A stretch of DNA of 64,000 nucleotides. Origin: Betaproteobacteria bacterium. Lineage in GTDB: Bacteria > Pseudomonadota > Gammaproteobacteria > Burkholderiales > Rhodocyclaceae. The DNA is taken from positions 13,581 through 77,580 of the forward strand of contig WQYQ01000013.1 of NCBI GenBank assembly GCA_009781175.1. The letters run 5' to 3'. Positions 3,691 to 12,484 of this stretch are shown here, piece by piece; within the stretch, counting starts at the first letter, position 1, and each line of letters starts with the position of its first letter. The notes below the pieces were generated by a model. The model was not told the DNA's origin. It saw only the letters and a program-made list of their open reading frames with translations, and did not search any database. The translations under genes and the position numbers were made by a program.

Positions 3691-4248
3691 TTACTTGACG
3701 CGGCTGCGGTATTCGTCGGTGCGGGTATCGATTTCGATCTTGTCGCCGATTTCGACGAAGGCCGGCACGGGCAGTTCGAAGCCGGTGCTGATCTTGGCGG
3801 GCTTCATGACCTTGCCCGAAGTGTCGCCTTTGACGGCGGGCTCGGTGTAGACGACTTCACGCACGACGCTGTTGGGCAATTCGACCGAAATCGCCTTGCC
3901 GTCGTAGAACACGACTTCGAGCGGCATGCCGTCGACGAGGTACTTGAGCGCTTCCTGCATGTTGTCCGCTTCGACTTCGTACTGGTGGTACTCGGTGTCC
4001 ATGAACACATACATCGGATCGGCGAAGTAGGAGTAGGTCACTTCCTTGCGGTCGAGCGTGACGAGTTCGAATTTGTCGTCGGCGCGGTAGACGGTTTCGG
4101 AGCCGGCGCCGGTCAAGAGATTCTTGAATTTCATCTTGACCACGGAGGCATTGCGGCCGGACTTGCTGTATTCGGCTTTCTGGACGACCAGCGCGTCGCT
4201 GCCGACCATTACGACATTGCCGGCGCGGAGTTCTTGGGCGAGTTTCAT
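3691..4248 (-). CDS. efp: Elongation factor P (Arg32 type)
   Basis: KSGRNASVV loop with Arg at the modified position; [10 protein letters not shown]; KIEIDTR. Confidence 0.97.
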
Positions 4249-4309
4249 CGGAGCACCTGAAGATTAAAAACGGCGCCGCCTGGCGCCTGAGACAAATAGG
4301 GATAACTTA

Positions 4310-5455
4310 TTATTTTAGCTTGCTTTTTACGAAATCCGCCAGTGCTGACGCCAAGTCGGTCTGCCGGCTCAAGCGCTCGCTCCAGTCTCGCGCATGCCGC
4401 GTCAGCTCGGGCAAGGCGGAGACGAGACGCGGCCATGATTGCGCAAAAACCGGCGCGGATTCTCCGGCCGGGTTCCAGTCGGCATGGAAACCGCATAGAG
4501 CCGCCGTTGTCATAGCGCTTAAGTTTTCGGCGTAGCGTTCAAGAAACGCGGCGAGTTTTTCGAGATGCGCCGCCTCGTCTTGACGATAAATCTGCCAGAT
4601 GAATGGGCTGCCTGCCCATTGCGCGCGCACGAAGGAATCCTCGCCGCGTACAAAATTCAGATCACAAGCCCAGAGCAATAGGTCGTAAGTGGTTTGCGCG
4701 AGAAAAGGCAGTGTTTGCAGCGTCAGCTGCCCGCGTTGTAAGGCTTTGCCGCCGGCCACGAGCGGCGCGTCCGCCCAAGCGCGCACTTGTTGCGAAACGA
4801 GCCCTTCGGGCGCGGCGCACCAGATCGGCGTCGCGCCGGCCGCCCAAATGTCGAGCAGCGCTGGCAGAGCGTCGGTCCGGTAGGCGAAGAGCGATAACTT
4901 CAGCGCGTTTGTTGGCGGCGCGGCAATCTTCAGGTCTTGCCAAAGCTTGCTGGGGCCGTCCGTGCCGAGAAAACCCCGGCGTCGTTCGAGCAAGCCCACC
5001 TCGCGCAAAAGCCCGCCGGTACGCGCGTTGAAACCGGGGTAGAAAAACCACTGCGTCAGAGGCAGACGCGGATGCGGCGAGGGCAGGGCATGACAGCCTT
5101 CGACCCAGGTTTCGGCCGACAGATATTCGAGGTTGATCCACACCGGCGGCCGCGTGCTGCGCGCCATTGCGGCGAGGTAAGACGCGGGCACTGGCGCGCC
5201 GAAGGCTTCGATGACGACTTCCGCGCAGTCCTCGGGCGCGTCTTCCGCATGCCAGGGCTGAATCGCGATGCTGCCCGGCGCATACGTGGTCTCGCCGGAG
5301 CGCAGCGCGGACAAGACGTCCGGCTTGTCTATCCAAAGCCGGACGTGGAATCCGTGCTCGTTTGCCAACTGCCGCGCTAAACGCCAGCAAACGCCTGCGT
5401 CGCCGAAGTTGTCGACGACCTTGCAGAAAATATCCCAGGTCAGCGGTGCGGCCAT
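4310..5455 (-). CDS. earP: EF-P arginine rhamnosyltransferase
   Basis: WDIFCKVVDNFGDAGVCWRLARQL, NLEYLSAE, FFYPGF, NFVRGEDSFVRAQWAG; directly upstream of efp. Confidence 0.95.
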   Translation of the reverse strand: MAAPLTWDIFCKVVDNFGDAGVCWRLARQLANEHGFHVRLWIDKPDVLSALRSGETTYAPGSIAIQPWHAEDAPEDCAEVVIEAFGAPVPASYLAAMARSTRPPVWINLEYLSAETWVEGCHALPSPHPRLPLTQWFFYPGFNARTGGLLREVGLLERRRGFLGTDGPSKLWQDLKIAAPPTNALKLSLFAYRTDALPALLDIWAAGATPIWCAAPEGLVSQQVRAWADAPLVAGGKALQRGQLTLQTLPFLAQTTYDLLLWACDLNFVRGEDSFVRAQWAGSPFIWQIYRQDEAAHLEKLAAFLERYAENLSAMTTAALCGFHADWNPAGESAPVFAQSWPRLVSALPELTRHARDWSERLSRQTDLASALADFVKSKLK

Positions 5456-5648
5456 GTGGAACAAATCCAGAAACGAGCCTTCGATTGTCGCAGACCCGCG
5501 TTGCCGTAGCGGCATGTTATACGTGATGAATACCGTGACGGCTTACCCGTGCGGATTTCGTTGTTGGATTAAGTTGGGTTTAAGCGCTGACGTGATAATA
5601 AGCAACAGTGCTACGTGCCCCGTTTTGGGTATTCCATCGGTATATCAA

Positions 5649-8600
5649 ATGAATCTGCCCGCCTCGCCCGCAATTTTCGCTAGTCCGCACGATATTTTGC
5701 TTGGCCCCGACCGGCCCGACCTAATCCGCAACGAAGTCCTCGCAGATTTGCTCGAAGCGACGGCCGCGCGCGTGCCGGAAAAAACGGCCTTGATTTTCGG
5801 CGAGTATTCGCTGACTTACGCTGAACTCGACGCGGCGGCTGGGCGCGTAGCGTCGCGCCTGATCGAAGCGGGCGTGCGGCCGGGGCAACTCGTCGGACTG
5901 TGGTTGCCGCGCGGCTTGCCGCTGCTCGTCATGCAGGCCGGCATCGCCAAAAGCGGCGCGGGCTGGCTGCCCTTTGATGCGGATACGCCGGTCGAGCGCA
6001 TCGGCATTTGCCTGGAGGACGCGGGCGCTGTCGGTATCGTCAGTTGCGCCGCCTTGGCCGATGCGCTGGCGCCGCTGGGGCGGACGGTGTGGTGTGCCGA
6101 GGCGCTGGACGCGCCGCTCGACGGGCCGCCGTGCCGGCGCGAAGGCGTATCGCCCGCGCATCCGGCCTATGTCATCTACACCTCCGGCTCGACGGGCAAG
6201 CCCAAGGGCATCGAAATCAATCAGGGCAGCATCTGCCACTTTCTGCGCAGCGAGAACGCGGTGCTCGGCGTGTGTGGGGACGACCGCGTGTATCAAGGTT
6301 TTTCGGTCGCCTTCGACATGTCTTTCGAAGAGATCTGGATCAGCTACCTCGTCGGCGCCACGCTCTGGATCGCGCCGAAGGAACTCGCGACCGACCCCGA
6401 AGCCCTGCCGCGCGCGCTTGCCGCCAACCATGTCAGCGTGCTGCATGCGGTGCCGACGCTGCTTGCGCTGTTCGCCGAAGATCCGCCGAACCTGCGTCTG
6501 ATCAACCTCGGCGGCGAGATGTGTCCTGAAGCGCTCGTCGAACGCTGGGCCAAACCCGGCCGGCAAATCTTCAATACCTACGGCCCGACTGAGGCGACCG
6601 TTTCGGCCAGCCTGGCCGAGTTGAAGGCCGGCGAGCCGGTGACGATCGGCACGCCGCTGCCGAATTACGGCCTGCTCGTTATCGACGACCAGCTACGTTT
6701 GCTGCCGCGCGGAGAAACGGGCGAGTTGTGCATTACCGGGCCGGGCGTCGCGGCGGGTTATCTCGGCCGTGCGGATCTGACGGCGGAAAAGTTTCTGCCG
6801 AATCCCTGGGCGCACGTCGGCTGGGACACGCGCATGTATCGCACCGGCGATCTCGCGCGCATCGATACCGATGGCCGGGTGCAATGCCTGGGCCGCGCCG
6901 ACGATCAGGTGAAAGTGCGCGGCTTCCGTGTCGAACTCGGCGAAATCGAAGCCGTTTTGGCGCGCCAGCCCGGTGTGGGTACATGTGCGGTTGTGCTGCG
7001 TGAGGACGAGGGCATTGACCACGAGTTGAGCGCAAGCCCCGCCATTGATGGCGGGGTCAGCGAAACAAGCGTTACTGGCGCCGAAGGCGCCCCCGATTCG
7101 TGGCGAGGAAGCCCCAAGCTTCAGCTTGGGGCGACTCACGAACTCGTCGCCTTCATCGTCCCCGAAGCGGATGCCCTGCTTTCGGGCAGCGAACTGCGTC
7201 GGCACCTGGCAGAAGTTCTGCCGCCTTATATGGTGCCGGGGCGTTTCGAAACGCTTGCGCTGCTTCCGCGTTTGACTTCGGGCAAGATCGATCGGAAGGC
7301 GCTGCGCGCCATGCCGCTTGCAGCGCCGCAAGCGCCCGCGGGTGAATCCGACGTGGCGCAGAATCCGGTCGAGGAAACACTCTTCGCCGCATTGGCCCGG
7401 CTTTTCCCCGGCCAGCCGATCCGGCGCGAGGCGGATTTCTTCTCCGACCTCGGCGGCCATTCGCTGCTTGCCGCGCGGCTCGCGTCCGCCTTGCGCGAAG
7501 ATCCGCGCTTTGCCTCGCTGACGGTGCGCGACATCTATCAAACGCGCCGTATTGGGGCGATCGCGCAAGTATTGGTGCACGCGGCAGCGGCAAAACATGT
7601 CGTTCCCGATGCGGATTTCGCGCCGCCGCCGGCGCTGCGCCGCTGGCTGTGCGGTCTGGCGCAATTGCTCGCGGTGCCGCCGCTCGTCGCGCTCTACATG
7701 ATTCAATGGCTCGCGCCGTTCTTCACTTATCACTTCTATACCGGCGAGCCGGGCGATTCGATTCCGCTCGCGATCGGCATGTCGGCGCTGGTGTTCTGGA
7801 TCGCCACGCAGCTTGGCTTCGTCGTCGCGATTATCGGCAAGCGTCTGATTGCACCGAAGCTCAAACCGGGACGTTATCCGCTTTGGGGTGTGACTTACTA
7901 TCGCTGGTGGCTTGCGGACCGCCTCATTGAAGCCGCGCCGAACTATCTGATCGCGGGTTCTTCGCTGTTCGTCTGGTATCTGCGCGCGCTGGGCGCCAAG
8001 ATCGGCCGCGATGTGCAGATCGGCTCGATCACGCTGCGCGCGCCCGAATTGCTGAGCCTGGGCGACGGCGTGAGCATTGGCACGGCGGTCAACTTCGAGA
8101 ACGCGCGCGTCGAACGCGGCCAGCTTGTGCTCGGGCGCATCGAACTTGCACATAACGCGTGTGTGGGCTCTTACGCGGTTGTCGAAGGCAATACCTCGAT
8201 CGGCGAATTCGGCCACCTCGAAGGGCTATCGGCGTTGACCGACGGCGAACATCTGCCGGCGCATCGCGTCTGGAGCGGCTCTCCCGCGCGCGATGTTGGC
8301 GCCTTCGATCCGACCAGCCTGCCGCCGCGCCCGCAGCCGGGCAAATTGCGGCGTGGCGCGGAAAACCTGTGTTTCACCCTCGGCGCGATGCTGGTTTCGA
8401 TTCTGTTCTTCCTGCCGGTTTTCCCGGCTTTCATGCTGATCGACAGCCTTGACGATCTGGATGGTTTCCAATGGGCGCATAGCACCGCAGATATGGTTAC
8501 GGATCTGATGCGGGTCGGGAAATATTTCGTACTCGCCCTGCCCGCCAGTGCCTTGCTGGTTATCTGCACCGCCTTGCTCGCGGCGCTGATCCGCTGGAGT

Positions 8601-9794
8601 TTTATGCCGCGCCTGCGCGCGGGGCGCTTCCCCGTGCATGGTTGGACGTATGTATCCAAATGGCTCGTCAACCAGATTCAGGAAACCAGCCTCCAGTTTT
8701 TGCATGGCGTTTATGCCACGATTTATGCGCCGGTCTGGTATCGCCTGCTCGGCGCCAAGGTGGGCCGCGGCGCGGAGATTTCCACGGCCTTGGGCGTAGT
8801 GCCCGACATGCTGACGCTCGGTGAGGAGAGTTTTATTGCCGACGCAGTGCTGCTTGGCGACGAGGAAATCGATGGCGGCTGGATGACGGTGCGGCCGACA
8901 GTTGTTTCGCGCCGCAGTTTCATTGGTAACGGCGCCTATGTGCCCGATGGCACCGTGGTGCCTGAAAACGTGCTGATCGGCGTGCAGTCGCGCGCGCCGG
9001 CGAATGCCGCCATGCAAAGCGGCGATACCTGGCTCGGTTCGCCGCCGCTCAACCTGCCCGCGCGCGAGGCGCTGGCCGGATTCCCCGAGCATCTGACCTT
9101 CCGTCCGTCGCTGCCGCGGCGTATCGGGCGTGGCTTGGTCGAAGCCTTGCGTATCGTTGCGCCGCACGCGCTGGTGATTGCCGTGGGCTACACCGTCATC
9201 ATGGCGCTGATGCCGGCGGCCGCCCGCGGGGATTGGCTGACCGTTTGTGTCGGTCTGGCCGTGGCCGGTTTGCTCTATGGGGTCGGGGCGTTCCTCTTCG
9301 TCGTGGCACTGAAATGGCCGCTCGTCGGGCGTTATCGTCAGCGCTCCAGTCCCATGTGGACGCCTTTCGTATGGCTCTCCGAGGCCGTGACCAACCTCTA
9401 CGAAGGTATTGCCGTGCCCAACTTCCTGCGCTATCTGCGCGGAACGCCGTGGCTGCCGGTCGCATTGCGGATGCTGGGGGCGAAAATCGGTCACGGAGTC
9501 TATCTCGATACGACCGACATGACCGAATACGACTGTGTCAGCATTGGTGACCATTGCGAAGTCAATGCACTGGCGGGACCGCAAACGCATCTGTTCGAAG
9601 ATCGTGTGATGAAGATCGACCGGGTCAACATCGGCAGCAAGGTCACGCTCGGCGCGCGCAACACCGTGCTCTACGGTGCTTCGATCGGCGATGGTGTGCG
9701 GACCGGTCCGCTCACGCTTGTCATGAAAGGTGAAAAACTGCCGCCTGCAAGCGCCTGGGCAGGCTGCCCCGCAGCGCCGATGCATGCAGACTAA
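5649..9794 (+). CDS. Pls/PosA-family membrane-bound NRPS-like homopoly(amino acid) synthetase (A-T-TM/left-handed beta-helix domains)
   Basis: A-domain motifs YTSGSTGKPKG, FDMSFEE, NTYGPTEATV, YRTGDL, GRADDQVKVRGFRVELGEIE; T-domain DFFSDLGGHSL; three hexapeptide-like domains (LGAKIG...) separated by TM segments; no C or TE domain. Start set at ATG 5649. Confidence 0.92.
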   Translation: MNLPASPAIFASPHDILLGPDRPDLIRNEVLADLLEATAARVPEKTALIFGEYSLTYAELDAAAGRVASRLIEAGVRPGQLVGLWLPRGLPLLVMQAGIAKSGAGWLPFDADTPVERIGICLEDAGAVGIVSCAALADALAPLGRTVWCAEALDAPLDGPPCRREGVSPAHPAYVIYTSGSTGKPKGIEINQGSICHFLRSENAVLGVCGDDRVYQGFSVAFDMSFEEIWISYLVGATLWIAPKELATDPEALPRALAANHVSVLHAVPTLLALFAEDPPNLRLINLGGEMCPEALVERWAKPGRQIFNTYGPTEATVSASLAELKAGEPVTIGTPLPNYGLLVIDDQLRLLPRGETGELCITGPGVAAGYLGRADLTAEKFLPNPWAHVGWDTRMYRTGDLARIDTDGRVQCLGRADDQVKVRGFRVELGEIEAVLARQPGVGTCAVVLREDEGIDHELSASPAIDGGVSETSVTGAEGAPDSWRGSPKLQLGATHELVAFIVPEADALLSGSELRRHLAEVLPPYMVPGRFETLALLPRLTSGKIDRKALRAMPLAAPQAPAGESDVAQNPVEETLFAALARLFPGQPIRREADFFSDLGGHSLLAARLASALREDPRFASLTVRDIYQTRRIGAIAQVLVHAAAAKHVVPDADFAPPPALRRWLCGLAQLLAVPPLVALYMIQWLAPFFTYHFYTGEPGDSIPLAIGMSALVFWIATQLGFVVAIIGKRLIAPKLKPGRYPLWGVTYYRWWLADRLIEAAPNYLIAGSSLFVWYLRALGAKIGRDVQIGSITLRAPELLSLGDGVSIGTAVNFENARVERGQLVLGRIELAHNACVGSYAVVEGNTSIGEFGHLEGLSALTDGEHLPAHRVWSGSPARDVGAFDPTSLPPRPQPGKLRRGAENLCFTLGAMLVSILFFLPVFPAFMLIDSLDDLDGFQWAHSTADMVTDLMRVGKYFVLALPASALLVICTALLAALIRWSFMPRLRAGRFPVHGWTYVSKWLVNQIQETSLQFLHGVYATIYAPVWYRLLGAKVGRGAEISTALGVVPDMLTLGEESFIADAVLLGDEEIDGGWMTVRPTVVSRRSFIGNGAYVPDGTVVPENVLIGVQSRAPANAAMQSGDTWLGSPPLNLPAREALAGFPEHLTFRPSLPRRIGRGLVEALRIVAPHALVIAVGYTVIMALMPAAARGDWLTVCVGLAVAGLLYGVGAFLFVVALKWPLVGRYRQRSSPMWTPFVWLSEAVTNLYEGIAVPNFLRYLRGTPWLPVALRMLGAKIGHGVYLDTTDMTEYDCVSIGDHCEVNALAGPQTHLFEDRVMKIDRVNIGSKVTLGARNTVLYGASIGDGVRTGPLTLVMKGEKLPPASAWAGCPAAPMHAD
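7020..7139 (+). mobile_element. 120-bp non-autonomous IS200/IS605-type element inserted in frame in the NRPS A domain
   Basis: TGAC target (7016-7019); left guide CAAG + hairpin CCCCGCCAT-TG-ATGGCGGGG; right guide GAAG + hairpin CCCCAAGCT-TC-AGCTTGGGG; ends in TCAC; removal restores G-I-D-E-L-V-A-F. Confidence 0.8.
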
Positions 9795-10470
9795 AGCGTT
9801 GCATATCTCCGCGTTACCGATCGAATTATCGGCTGACAAACCTGTCGTCCTCGCCGTGGAAACGTCGGACACGACGCTGCGCCCGGTTGCGCGTGAGCGC
9901 GTGCGGCAGGTTCTGCGCGCCTTGCTCGCGCCGAACCTGGGCTGTAGCGCGGAAGATGTTCCATTGCATTGTGCACCGGGCTCCCCGCCGCAGCTTGTCG
10001 TGAATCGCAGAAAAATTCATACTTTGTCGACTTCGCCTTGCCGTACTACTTGTACTGTTTGCGGCTCGTCTTCGCGTCTGAATTCCTCTGCGATTCACTC
10101 TACTAATAGTGCGTCCGAACCGCGCATCGGACTTGGCATTGCACATGAAGCCGGTCTGTCCCTTGTCGCGGCGTTTCCCAATGGCCGCGTCGGCGTGGAT
10201 TTGATGCGCATCGACGCGCTGCCGGACTGGTTTAGCGTAGCGCGCGATTATCTCGGGCCGGACGCGACGCGCAGGCTTGGGCGGGTCGATCAAGCGCAGC
10301 GGCCCACCGCTTTCGCCGCCGTGTGGACGCAACTGGAGGCCGTGCTCAAATGTCACGGTTTACCGCTCACGGAATGGTCACCGCACATGGCTGCGCTGCT
10401 AAAGTCGACGCCAAGCCAGCCCTTGGCCTTACCGGCGCCTTATATTGGGCATATCGCCTGGTTGCGGTAG
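9784..10470 (+). CDS. Sfp-type 4'-phosphopantetheinyl transferase
   Basis: Overlaps the NRPS stop; [28 protein letters not shown]. Confidence 0.85.
9996..10102. mobile_element. Correia-like MITE inserted in frame in the PPTase
   Basis: Inverted repeats at 10000-10019 and 10079-10098 (18/20 match) enclosing CTTCGCCTTGCCGTACTACTTGTACTGTTTGCGGCT; ends ...CACTCTA; adds about 35 atypical codons. Confidence 0.65.
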
Positions 10471-10507: not shown

Positions 10508-11100
10508 ATGGAGTTCGATTACGTCATCGTCGGCGGCGGTTCGGCGGGCTGTGTGCTCGCCAATCGTTTATCCGAAGACGCTGCGGTGACGGTATGCCTG
10601 CTCGAAGCAGGACCGCAAGACAGCAACCCACTGATTCGGATTCCGTTTGCCACCCTATGGATGATGCGCAGCGCGGCGCTCAATTGGAATTACCGTACCG
10701 CCCCCGAACCAGCCCTGCATGGCCGCCGTTTGTTCTGGCCGCGCCCGCTTTCGACGCCTATCGCGGCCGCGAACTTATTCCGGGCTCGCAACTTCAAAAT
10801 GAAGATGAAATTCGCGCTTTCATTCGAAAGCATGCGGAAACGATTTATCACCCGGCGGGGACCTGCCGCATGGGAACTGATGCGCTTGCCGTCGTGGACC
10901 CCGAATTGTGCGTACGTGGCATCGAAGGCTTACGCGTTGTCGATGCCTCGGTTATGCCGACATTGATTGGTGGGAATACGCATGCGCCGGTCATCATGAT
11001 TGCCGAAAAAGCGTCAGATCTTGTGAGGGCCGCGCAAAGGAAAATGGGAAGCAAACGTTCCGCTGCGATTTTAAGTGCCCCGTCTCGGTGCGCTTTTTAA
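10508..11100 (+). pseudogene. GMC (choline dehydrogenase-like) oxidoreductase with a large internal deletion and frameshift
   Basis: N-terminal [22 protein letters not shown]...LFWPR joined out of frame near 10745 to C-terminal PAFDAYRG...[12 protein letters not shown]...VVDASVMP...GNTHAPVIMIAEKA. Confidence 0.88.
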
Positions 11101-12440: not shown

Positions 12441-12484
12441 ATTCGTGGCGAAGAAGCCCCAAGCTTCAGCTTGAGGCGATTCAC
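12441..12484 (+). mobile_element. Solo IS200/IS605-type right end (44 bp)
   Basis: 41/44 identical to 7096-7139; preceded by TGAC (12437-12440) and ends in TCAC. Confidence 0.75.

Follow-up and report, generated by a model that had tools for sequence, protein, structure and literature searches.

Organization of the locus

The sequence analysed here, referred to as the window, is a stretch of 64,000 nucleotides from Betaproteobacteria bacterium, a member of the Rhodocyclaceae (assembly GCA_009781175.1, contig WQYQ01000013.1, positions 13,581 to 77,580 of the forward strand). The system in question is a conserved two-gene cassette on its plus strand, formed by a posA-like gene for a synthetase of the Pls/PosA family of non-ribosomal peptide synthetases (NRPSs) and, directly downstream, a gene for a 4'-phosphopantetheinyl transferase (PPTase) with the fold of Sfp. 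The synthetase is composed of an adenylation (A) domain, a thiolation (T) domain and a C-terminal region with transmembrane (TM) segments. Each gene is interrupted, in frame, by a short inserted element, named E1 in the synthetase and E2 in the PPTase. The features of the cassette, in window coordinates, are as follows.

5649..9794, plus strand: posA-like gene, Pls/PosA-family synthetase, 1381 aa, A-T-TM2-C1-TM2-C2-TM2-C3 (Pfam, NCBIfam)
5751..7316, plus strand: adenylation domain, core and C-terminal lobe (538 bits to the PosA A-core structure 8G95)
7020..7139, plus strand: E1, 120-nt (40-codon) repeated element, in frame, residues 458-497 (alignment, empty site)
7386..7571, plus strand: thiolation (carrier) domain (PF00550 PP-binding, residues 580-641)
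7659..9773, plus strand: C-terminal polymerisation domain, three TM pairs each followed by a left-handed beta-helix (TIGR02353, hydropathy)
9784..10470, plus strand: gene for the Sfp-fold PPTase, 228 aa with its insert (PF01648, AlphaFold2 fold)
10000..10098, plus strand: E2, 99-nt (33-codon) miniature inverted-repeat transposable element (MITE), in frame in the PPTase, residues 73-105 (inverted repeats, homologue alignment)

The stop-to-stop frame of the synthetase extends from 5268 to 9794, and a start at 5649 (MNLPASPAIF...), consistent with the N-terminal ends of PosA and of every orthologue, gives the protein of 1381 residues. The open reading frame of the PPTase covers 9730-10470, its likely ATG lies at 9784, and its start overlaps the stop codon of the synthetase (9792-9794) by 11 nt.

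Domain architecture and family of the synthetase

The preliminary description of this locus had read the first gene as an A-T enzyme with three repetitions of a TM pair and a beta-helix, devoid of condensation (C) and thioesterase (TE) domains, and Pfam, TIGR02353 and hydropathy agree with that organization. In the Pfam scan, in which domains were listed at E <= 0.01, AMP-binding covers residues 35-372 (PF00501, 248 bits) and AMP-binding_C residues 498-546, Hexapep/LbH matches are present, and no Condensation or Thioesterase domain is listed. The amino-acid adenylation model TIGR01733 of NCBIfam scores 399.6 bits (cut-off 317.4), and TIGR02353, whose name is "Pls/PosA family non-ribosomal peptide synthetase", matches residues 671-1375 over model positions 2-695 of 695 with 792.5 bits, against a cut-off of 423.1. 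The NCBI pipeline would thus already name the synthetase, and the gene type is already known.

The core motifs of the A domain are all invariant, as are G602, G603, H604 and S605 across 27 sequences; Ser605, in GGHS (nt 7461-7463), is the predicted phosphopantetheine attachment site. A 19-residue hydropathy scan places the pairs of TM segments at 667-691/711-729, 913-931/960-978 and 1169-1187/1203-1221, the three-pair topology described for Pls and PosA (PMC10522769). The search of the PDB yielded no solved structure of the C-terminal polymerisation domain; its matches there are beta-helices of the gamma-carbonic-anhydrase/YrdA type only. The AlphaFold2 (AF2) model of the A domain is confident outside the E1 insert.

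The binding pocket and the predicted substrate

The best PDB match of the A domain is the adenylation core of PosA from Acinetobacter baumannii (8G95-8G98), aligned with few gaps and strong conservation at the 538 bits given above, while the A domain of Pls (7WEW) reaches 254 bits; identity of the A-core to that of PosA, judged by eye from the alignment, is 65-70%. HMMER and a multiple alignment place the ten residues of the pocket code at D223, M224, E227, H266, N286, G288, T310, V318, S319 and K546, that is, DMEHNGTVSK, exactly the code that had been derived by hand in the preliminary description. The same code is found in 79 of 85 aligned sequences and five others differ from it by one T-to-S or S-to-G change; the sixth non-identical code belongs to a copy of PosA recovered by optical character recognition (OCR), which is one letter short.

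It has been established that PosA uses L-ornithine and produces delta-poly-L-ornithine, both points having been demonstrated experimentally, and that the products are 7- to 12-mers of delta-linked ornithine (Patel & Gulick 2023, PMC10522769). Its code is DMEHNGTVSK, with Asp217, Met218, Glu221, His260, Asn280, Thr304, Val312 and Ser313 among its positions (PMC10522769, Supp. Table 2), and the positions D, M, E, H, N, T and S of PosA are all identical in the window protein. The kcat/KM of PosA for L-ornithine is 160-fold above that for L-lysine, the E221A and D217A mutants are inactive, and M218A moves the preference towards lysine (PMC10522769). The pair of Asp and Glu in the code is conserved in all family members, and code position 2 is Ala or Phe in the enzymes for lysine, 2,4-diaminobutyrate (Dab) and 2,3-diaminopropionate (Dap) (PMC10522769, Supp. 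Table 2). In the same work the clusters of beta- and gamma-proteobacterial sequences carry the PosA code, and an Oxalobacteraceae protein is entered as "Orn".

The window synthetase has Asp at code position 1 (D223) and Glu at position 3 (E227), a pair that bears out the earlier prediction of a diamino-acid substrate. The further proposal of an uncharacterised cationic isopeptide polymer does not stand, since the code is letter for letter that of PosA, whose product is known. Because of this identity, of the A-core scores (538 versus 254 bits) and of the placement in the PosA clade described below, the likely product is delta-poly-L-ornithine; we infer substrate, type of linkage, activity and biological role from this likeness.

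Distribution and phylogeny

A scan of species-representative genomes gave at least 565 confirmed relatives in 600 stretches, of which 80 loci were kept for comparison. Relatives in the protein database number in the thousands; the best named ones, called "Pls/PosA family non-ribosomal peptide synthetase", are 66-69% identical and come from Niveibacterium, Collimonas, Janthinobacterium, Massilia, Polaromonas, Variovorax and others, and two metagenomic proteins are 77-79% identical. The nearest orthologues, at loci L001 and L002, share 79-82% identity with the synthetase. TIGR02353 was passed in 9 of 11 genomes of the window's genus, its own included, in 1 of 14 sampled sister genera of the family and in 28 of 401 evenly sampled genomes across the phylum. 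A representative search with residues 1-1200 returned a top 150 made up almost wholly of giant multi-module NRPSs, the only family member being P0198; the scores of many A domains sum in such proteins, so that this list was swamped and is unfit for a family tree.

A tree was therefore not drawn from that list; the FastTree phylogeny comprises 44 usable members from 400 sampled genomes of the phylum, labelled by their pocket codes, with four loci that gave antisense shadow ORFs (open reading frames) excluded. It holds none of Pls, PDAP and PDAB, the alignment in Supp. Fig. 21 of the PosA paper being too short and OCR-damaged. In this tree the window synthetase falls, with support 0.998, in a clade of 24 tips that also comprises 22 DMEHNG(T/S)VSK sequences from its order and class and PosA of A. 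baumannii; within it, the window, L001, L002 and L102 form a sub-clade of their own. The PosA clade is separate from the clades with the codes DLED(I/L)G(S/T)VVK (uncharacterised), DFEALGTVTK (Dap-like), DFECLSAVTK (Dab) and DSECYGGVTK (Arg-activating), as assigned in PMC10522769. The placement in the Pls/PosA family put forward in the preliminary description thus finds support in the tree, from which Pls itself was left out. By every testable sequence feature, the synthetase is assigned to the Pls/PosA family and to its PosA (ornithine) branch.

The comparison with characterised members of the family defines what is shared and what is peculiar to the window. PosA of A. baumannii AB307-0294 (ATY43264) has the same architecture and is collinear over the full length, with ~51% identity to its OCR copy, and it shares the ten-residue code and the clade. 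It differs in that A. baumannii posA is described as a single-gene operon (PMC10522769), whereas the window gene is translationally coupled to a PPTase gene, carries a 40-aa mobile-element insert in the C-terminal lobe of the A domain and resides in a Rhodocyclaceae host. Pls, the epsilon-poly-L-lysine synthetase of Streptomyces albulus (7WEW), matches the same TIGR02353 model and shares the domain order and the Asp/Glu pair, but its code is DAESIGTVVK; position 2 is Met in the window protein and Ala in Pls, and the predicted substrate is for this reason unlike that of Pls. The beta-proteobacterial Pls/PosA proteins of RefSeq are 63-69% identical (best tblastn segment), have the same code and, for the most part, the same PPTase, but none of them carries E1 or E2.

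One of the compared loci, L061 (JBLHLW010000010.1), is labelled "Candidatus Paceibacteria bacterium" and contains a posA-PPTase cassette, 65% identical, of the kind usual in Burkholderiales; the label is probably a binning error in a metagenome-assembled genome.

The partner phosphopantetheinyl transferase

The preliminary description had also coupled the synthetase to an Sfp-type PPTase, and both the 11-nt overlap and the assignment of the protein speak for it. PF01648 matches with 34.9 bits (Pfam cut-off 25), and the AF2 model (pLDDT 84) has Sfp (4mrt_A) as its top PDB fold match, with an E value of 8e-7. AASDHPPT, PptT and PcpS are further fold matches, the Foldseek probability being 1.00 for Sfp, AASDHPPT and PptT. 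Residues D139, W181, E185 and K189 are invariant in 27 homologues. With the Sfp-type (group II) PPTases of known structure (Sfp 4MRT, AASDHPPT, PptT, PcpS) the window family shares the two-lobed fold, the Asp of the G-x-D motif and the W..E...K motif; it differs from them in being shorter (~170-195 aa without the insert), in having no acidic residue at Asp+2 and in its identity of 10-14% to the solved ones. The partner is accordingly modelled as an Sfp-fold PPTase whose activity we infer.

By tblastn, 65 of 83 loci have a homologue of this PPTase immediately after the synthetase gene; with all-against-all clustering the count is 75 of 84, and no other flanking gene family is common to more than 12 of the 84 loci. 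The only other PF01648 match in the genome is one AcpS-like frame of 142 aa, so that no other non-AcpS PPTase is found there, which leaves the partner as the one plausible enzyme for activating the carrier domain. The beta-proteobacterial synthetase nearly always travels with this short, divergent Sfp-fold enzyme, which is missing beside the A. baumannii gene, and the partner may be needed for heterologous production.

The metal-binding motif of Sfp-type enzymes is G-x-D-x-E, GIDIE in Sfp itself, with the Glu two positions after the Asp; further metal and catalytic residues are the Glu and Lys of W-x-x-K-E-x-x-x-K. In most PPTases linked to posA, the Glu directly after the histidine of the SxSH motif (SHE) is kept, and this Glu might take over the metal-ligand role in these proteins.

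Two in-frame inserted elements

Both inserts had been flagged separately in the preliminary description, whose main descriptive claims were tested and hold. Residues 458-497 form a block that none of the 84 other sequences has and that accounts for the 30-45 residues by which the synthetase exceeds its relatives in length. E1 sits after TGAC, and the corresponding empty site in L002 reads ggcattgac|cagctcgt. In the protein, E1 lies in a beta-hairpin of the C-terminal lobe of the A domain, between core motifs a8 and a9, a position at which whole methyltransferase domains are naturally inserted in other A domains (PMC9056781, PMC11355689). In the AF2 model E1 has a pLDDT of ~24 and no secondary structure, and the flanking strands, 443-452 and 497-505, are intact.

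E1 is highly repeated in its own 3.3-Mb genome, with 144 nhmmer matches, 68 of them full length, and it is absent from ten other genomes of the genus, bar one fragment. Its copies have conserved ends, TGAC|CACG...TCAC, with TGAC before at least 60 of 63 copies, TCAC at the end of 58 of 63 and no target duplication, together with two sub-terminal hairpins; the RNA fold of the element has a z of -5.2. In these asymmetric ends (TGAC target, TCAC end, hairpins, no duplication) E1 is like the IS200/IS605-derived elements and less like inverted-repeat MITEs. Two genes for Y1 tyrosine transposases (PF01797), of the IS200/IS605 or REP-associated type, are present in the genome, at C10:1856-2212 and C6:30913-31221. 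A tie between E1 and a resident Y1 transposase found no support, neither gene being flanked by E1-like ends in the assembly. A solo 44-nt match to the right end of E1 (model positions 79-122), without the left half, lies at 12441-12484 of the window.

The element is mostly intergenic: open frames of 200 aa or more contain 24 of the 68 full-length copies, versus 82% of random positions. E1 is found in frame in dnaX (C23:32628-34772), ribD (C3:182594-183919), a heavy-metal P-type ATPase (C38:4707-7337) and a Na+/H+ antiporter (C12:86079-87473), and also in a DUF2339 protein and an RNase T-family exonuclease. Most same-orientation copies share their phase and would encode a peptide of ~40 aa, ...SASPAIHGGVSETSVTGAEGA....

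E2 is an element of a different kind, delimited by perfect terminal inverted repeats of 12 nt (10000-10011 and 10087-10098) and with a hairpin z of -4.1. The genome contains seven copies, mostly flanked by TA..TA, that is, a TA target duplication; those other than the PPTase copy are located at C6:120231-120330, C15:9036-9138, C3:71889-71993, C20:11241-11343, C14:74913-75014 and C2:42527-42634, and the PPTase and C2 copies have TC..TC as flanks instead. E2 is absent from 26 homologous PPTases. Since the 99 nt of the element together with 2 duplicated nt would shift the reading frame, the copy in the PPTase may have required compensation nearby, for which the loop beside E2 (STNSASEP, compared with PDPA in L001) is a candidate. 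In the AF2 model of the PPTase E2 falls in the disordered stretch 81-109; for both inserts the models give a pLDDT below 50 and no secondary structure, with well-predicted strands on either side. No Rfam family matched either E1 or E2. If the inserts are translated, peptides such as SPAIDGGVSETSVTGAEGAPDSWR are to be expected.

Known in-frame miniature elements are the Rickettsia palindromic elements (RPEs) and the QMITEs of Coxiella (PMC10969869, PMC5896051). Like E1, these are short structured repeats that lie in frame in unrelated genes, housekeeping ones included, and add a peptide loop to the product; the present host differs in being a free-living beta-proteobacterium, and the ends of E1 are asymmetric.

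Proposed function and competing explanations

The reading that we favour, and regard as quite probable, is that the cassette encodes a PosA-type synthetase of a cationic homopoly-amino acid and its dedicated Sfp-fold PPTase in a Rhodocyclaceae host, that the polymer is delta-poly-L-ornithine, and that the inserts are probably tolerated. According to this model, the PPTase would convert Ser605 of the carrier domain into the holo form. The A domain would then select L-ornithine, with Asp223 contacting the alpha-amine, Glu227, Thr310 and Ser319 the delta-amine, and Met224 setting the chain length, and would form Orn-AMP before loading ornithine as a thioester. The membrane-embedded C-terminal domain, with its six TM helices and three packed beta-helices, would catalyse repeated bond formation between the carbonyl of the thioester and the delta-amine of either free ornithine or an oligomer, and delta-poly-L-ornithine, a short polycation, would finally be released. 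In the one studied case this polymer has antifungal and biofilm-modulating activity.

Several observations weigh against this reading. Searches of the literature turned up neither biochemical nor expression data on this gene or on its beta-proteobacterial homologues. A scan around the operon gave no sigma-70 consensus, so that promoters upstream of the synthetase, in 5516..5648, are presumed only. The PPTase family has the motif VGVD(L/I/V)(M/L/I/V/A), here VGVDLMR (residues 137-141), with no acidic residue at Asp+2, and the NCBIfam matches of the protein are far under their cut-offs, e.g., HetI with 28 bits versus 370. The A domain of PosA activates D-ornithine at about half efficiency and L-lysine weakly (PMC10522769), and the purity of the product is uncertain on that account. 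Finally, two independent insertions and a neighbouring pseudogene fit an early stage of decay, as does a genome of 3.3 Mb, compared with 3.4-5.2 Mb in the genus.

The last of these points underlie the strongest of the competing explanations, which we consider unlikely: that the cassette is becoming a pseudogene, the inserts impairing domain alternation or CoA binding so that no polymer is made despite the open frames. E1 and E2 are unique to this genome among 84 synthetase and 26 PPTase sequences, what follows downstream is the remnant of a gene after deletion, this locus lacks the PPK2 and hypothetical genes that L001 and L002 have next to the cassette, and no sampled genome of the genus is smaller than this one, which is full of repeats. 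On the other hand, all 1381 and 228 codons are open and every catalytic motif is intact. For the synthetase, dN/dS against L001 and L002 is 0.11-0.16, and for the PPTase it is 0.20-0.26; L001 and L002 compared with each other give similar ratios, though such ratios are averaged over a long history. Both inserts map to predicted disordered loops, and for this reason the genes are probably still functional, with the inserts modelled as disordered surface loops; moreover, E1 also lies in frame in the essential dnaX and ribD, which must still work.

A second, improbable explanation is that the downstream gene encodes a divergent protein of PPTase fold with some other role, the carrier domain being primed by another enzyme. 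The lack of the second acidic metal ligand of Sfp-type enzymes, the low HetI score and the lack of a linked PPTase beside A. baumannii posA are all in its favour. It has to contend, however, with a gene located immediately downstream, and often overlapping, in 75 of 84 loci from many genera in which nothing else is conserved, with Sfp as the top fold match, with four invariant motif residues (D139, W181, E185 and K189) and with a genome that offers no other non-AcpS PPTase.

Least probable of all is that a polymer unlike that of PosA, made of another basic amino acid (L-lysine, Dab or D-ornithine) or mixed, is produced: the partial activity of the PosA A domain on D-ornithine and L-lysine, the degeneracy of the Stachelhaus code (discussed in PMC10522769) and an overall identity of merely ~50% between the polymerisation domain and that of PosA leave some room for it, but all ten code residues equal those of PosA, the chain-length-setting Met included, a position taken by Ala or Phe in the enzymes for lysine, Dab and Dap, the by-eye identity of the A-cores is 65-70%, and the gene sits in the PosA clade with support 0.998.

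Returning to the PosA-type cassette as the preferred explanation, its implications differ for the gene and for the inserts. The gene adds one more predicted producer of delta-poly-L-ornithine to a family already named in RefSeq, and in itself teaches little, as the PosA paper of 2023 had already predicted ornithine for the beta-proteobacterial branch. The inserts are of wider relevance, to the engineering of insertion sites in NRPSs and to the spread of miniature elements through coding DNA: 40 residues in the a8-a9 hairpin and 33 in the inter-lobe loop of the PPTase are accommodated apparently without loss of frame or motif. We give about even weight, for and against, to the more specific proposal that the cassette works in spite of translated mobile-element loops and that E1 is an RPE-like repeat, tolerated in frame, with IS200/IS605-style ends and ~144 copies confined to one genome of the genus. 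Were this the case, E1 would have colonised at least six conserved genes, dnaX and ribD among them, and the two proteins would offer a natural map of loops of the A domain (a8-a9) and of the PPTase that tolerate 33-40 extra residues.

Neighbouring genes

The following features flank the cassette.

3691..5515, minus strand: efp (3691-4248) and earP (4310-5515), elongation factor P (EF-P) and its arginine rhamnosyltransferase, neighbours only (Pfam, NCBIfam)
5516..5648, no strand: divergent intergenic region between earP and posA, 133 nt, presumed promoters (read from the sequence)
10508..11046, plus strand: remnant of a GMC (choline-dehydrogenase-like) oxidoreductase gene (tblastn with the L001 neighbour; split Pfam and NCBIfam matches)

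The divergent earP-efp pair upstream, to which the preliminary description had drawn attention, is present (TIGR03837, 455 bits for earP) but has no bearing on the system. It lies near posA only in L001 and L002, where PPK2 and a hypothetical gene intervene, and the adjacency is a matter of local synteny, not of function. A scan for terminators around the operon gave nothing informative. In L001 (6875-7699) and L002 (1566-2450) a PPK2 polyphosphate kinase gene stands divergently beside the synthetase; it is missing at the window locus, and the pairing is not kept beyond these two loci. The supply of polyphosphate and ATP is discussed for epsilon-polylysine production (PMC10012588). A functional tie of the cassette to earP-efp or to PPK2 was rejected, the adjacency being restricted to the closest relatives.

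Downstream of the cassette, the large MASE1/CHASE/PAS/GGDEF/EAL gene that follows the GMC gene in L001 and L002 was not found in the window. The GMC oxidoreductase itself is intact (550-570 aa) and in the same position in L001 and L002, and the window remnant keeps aa 1-79 and 427-535 of the 550-aa orthologue, having undergone an internal deletion of ~1 kb and a change of frame.

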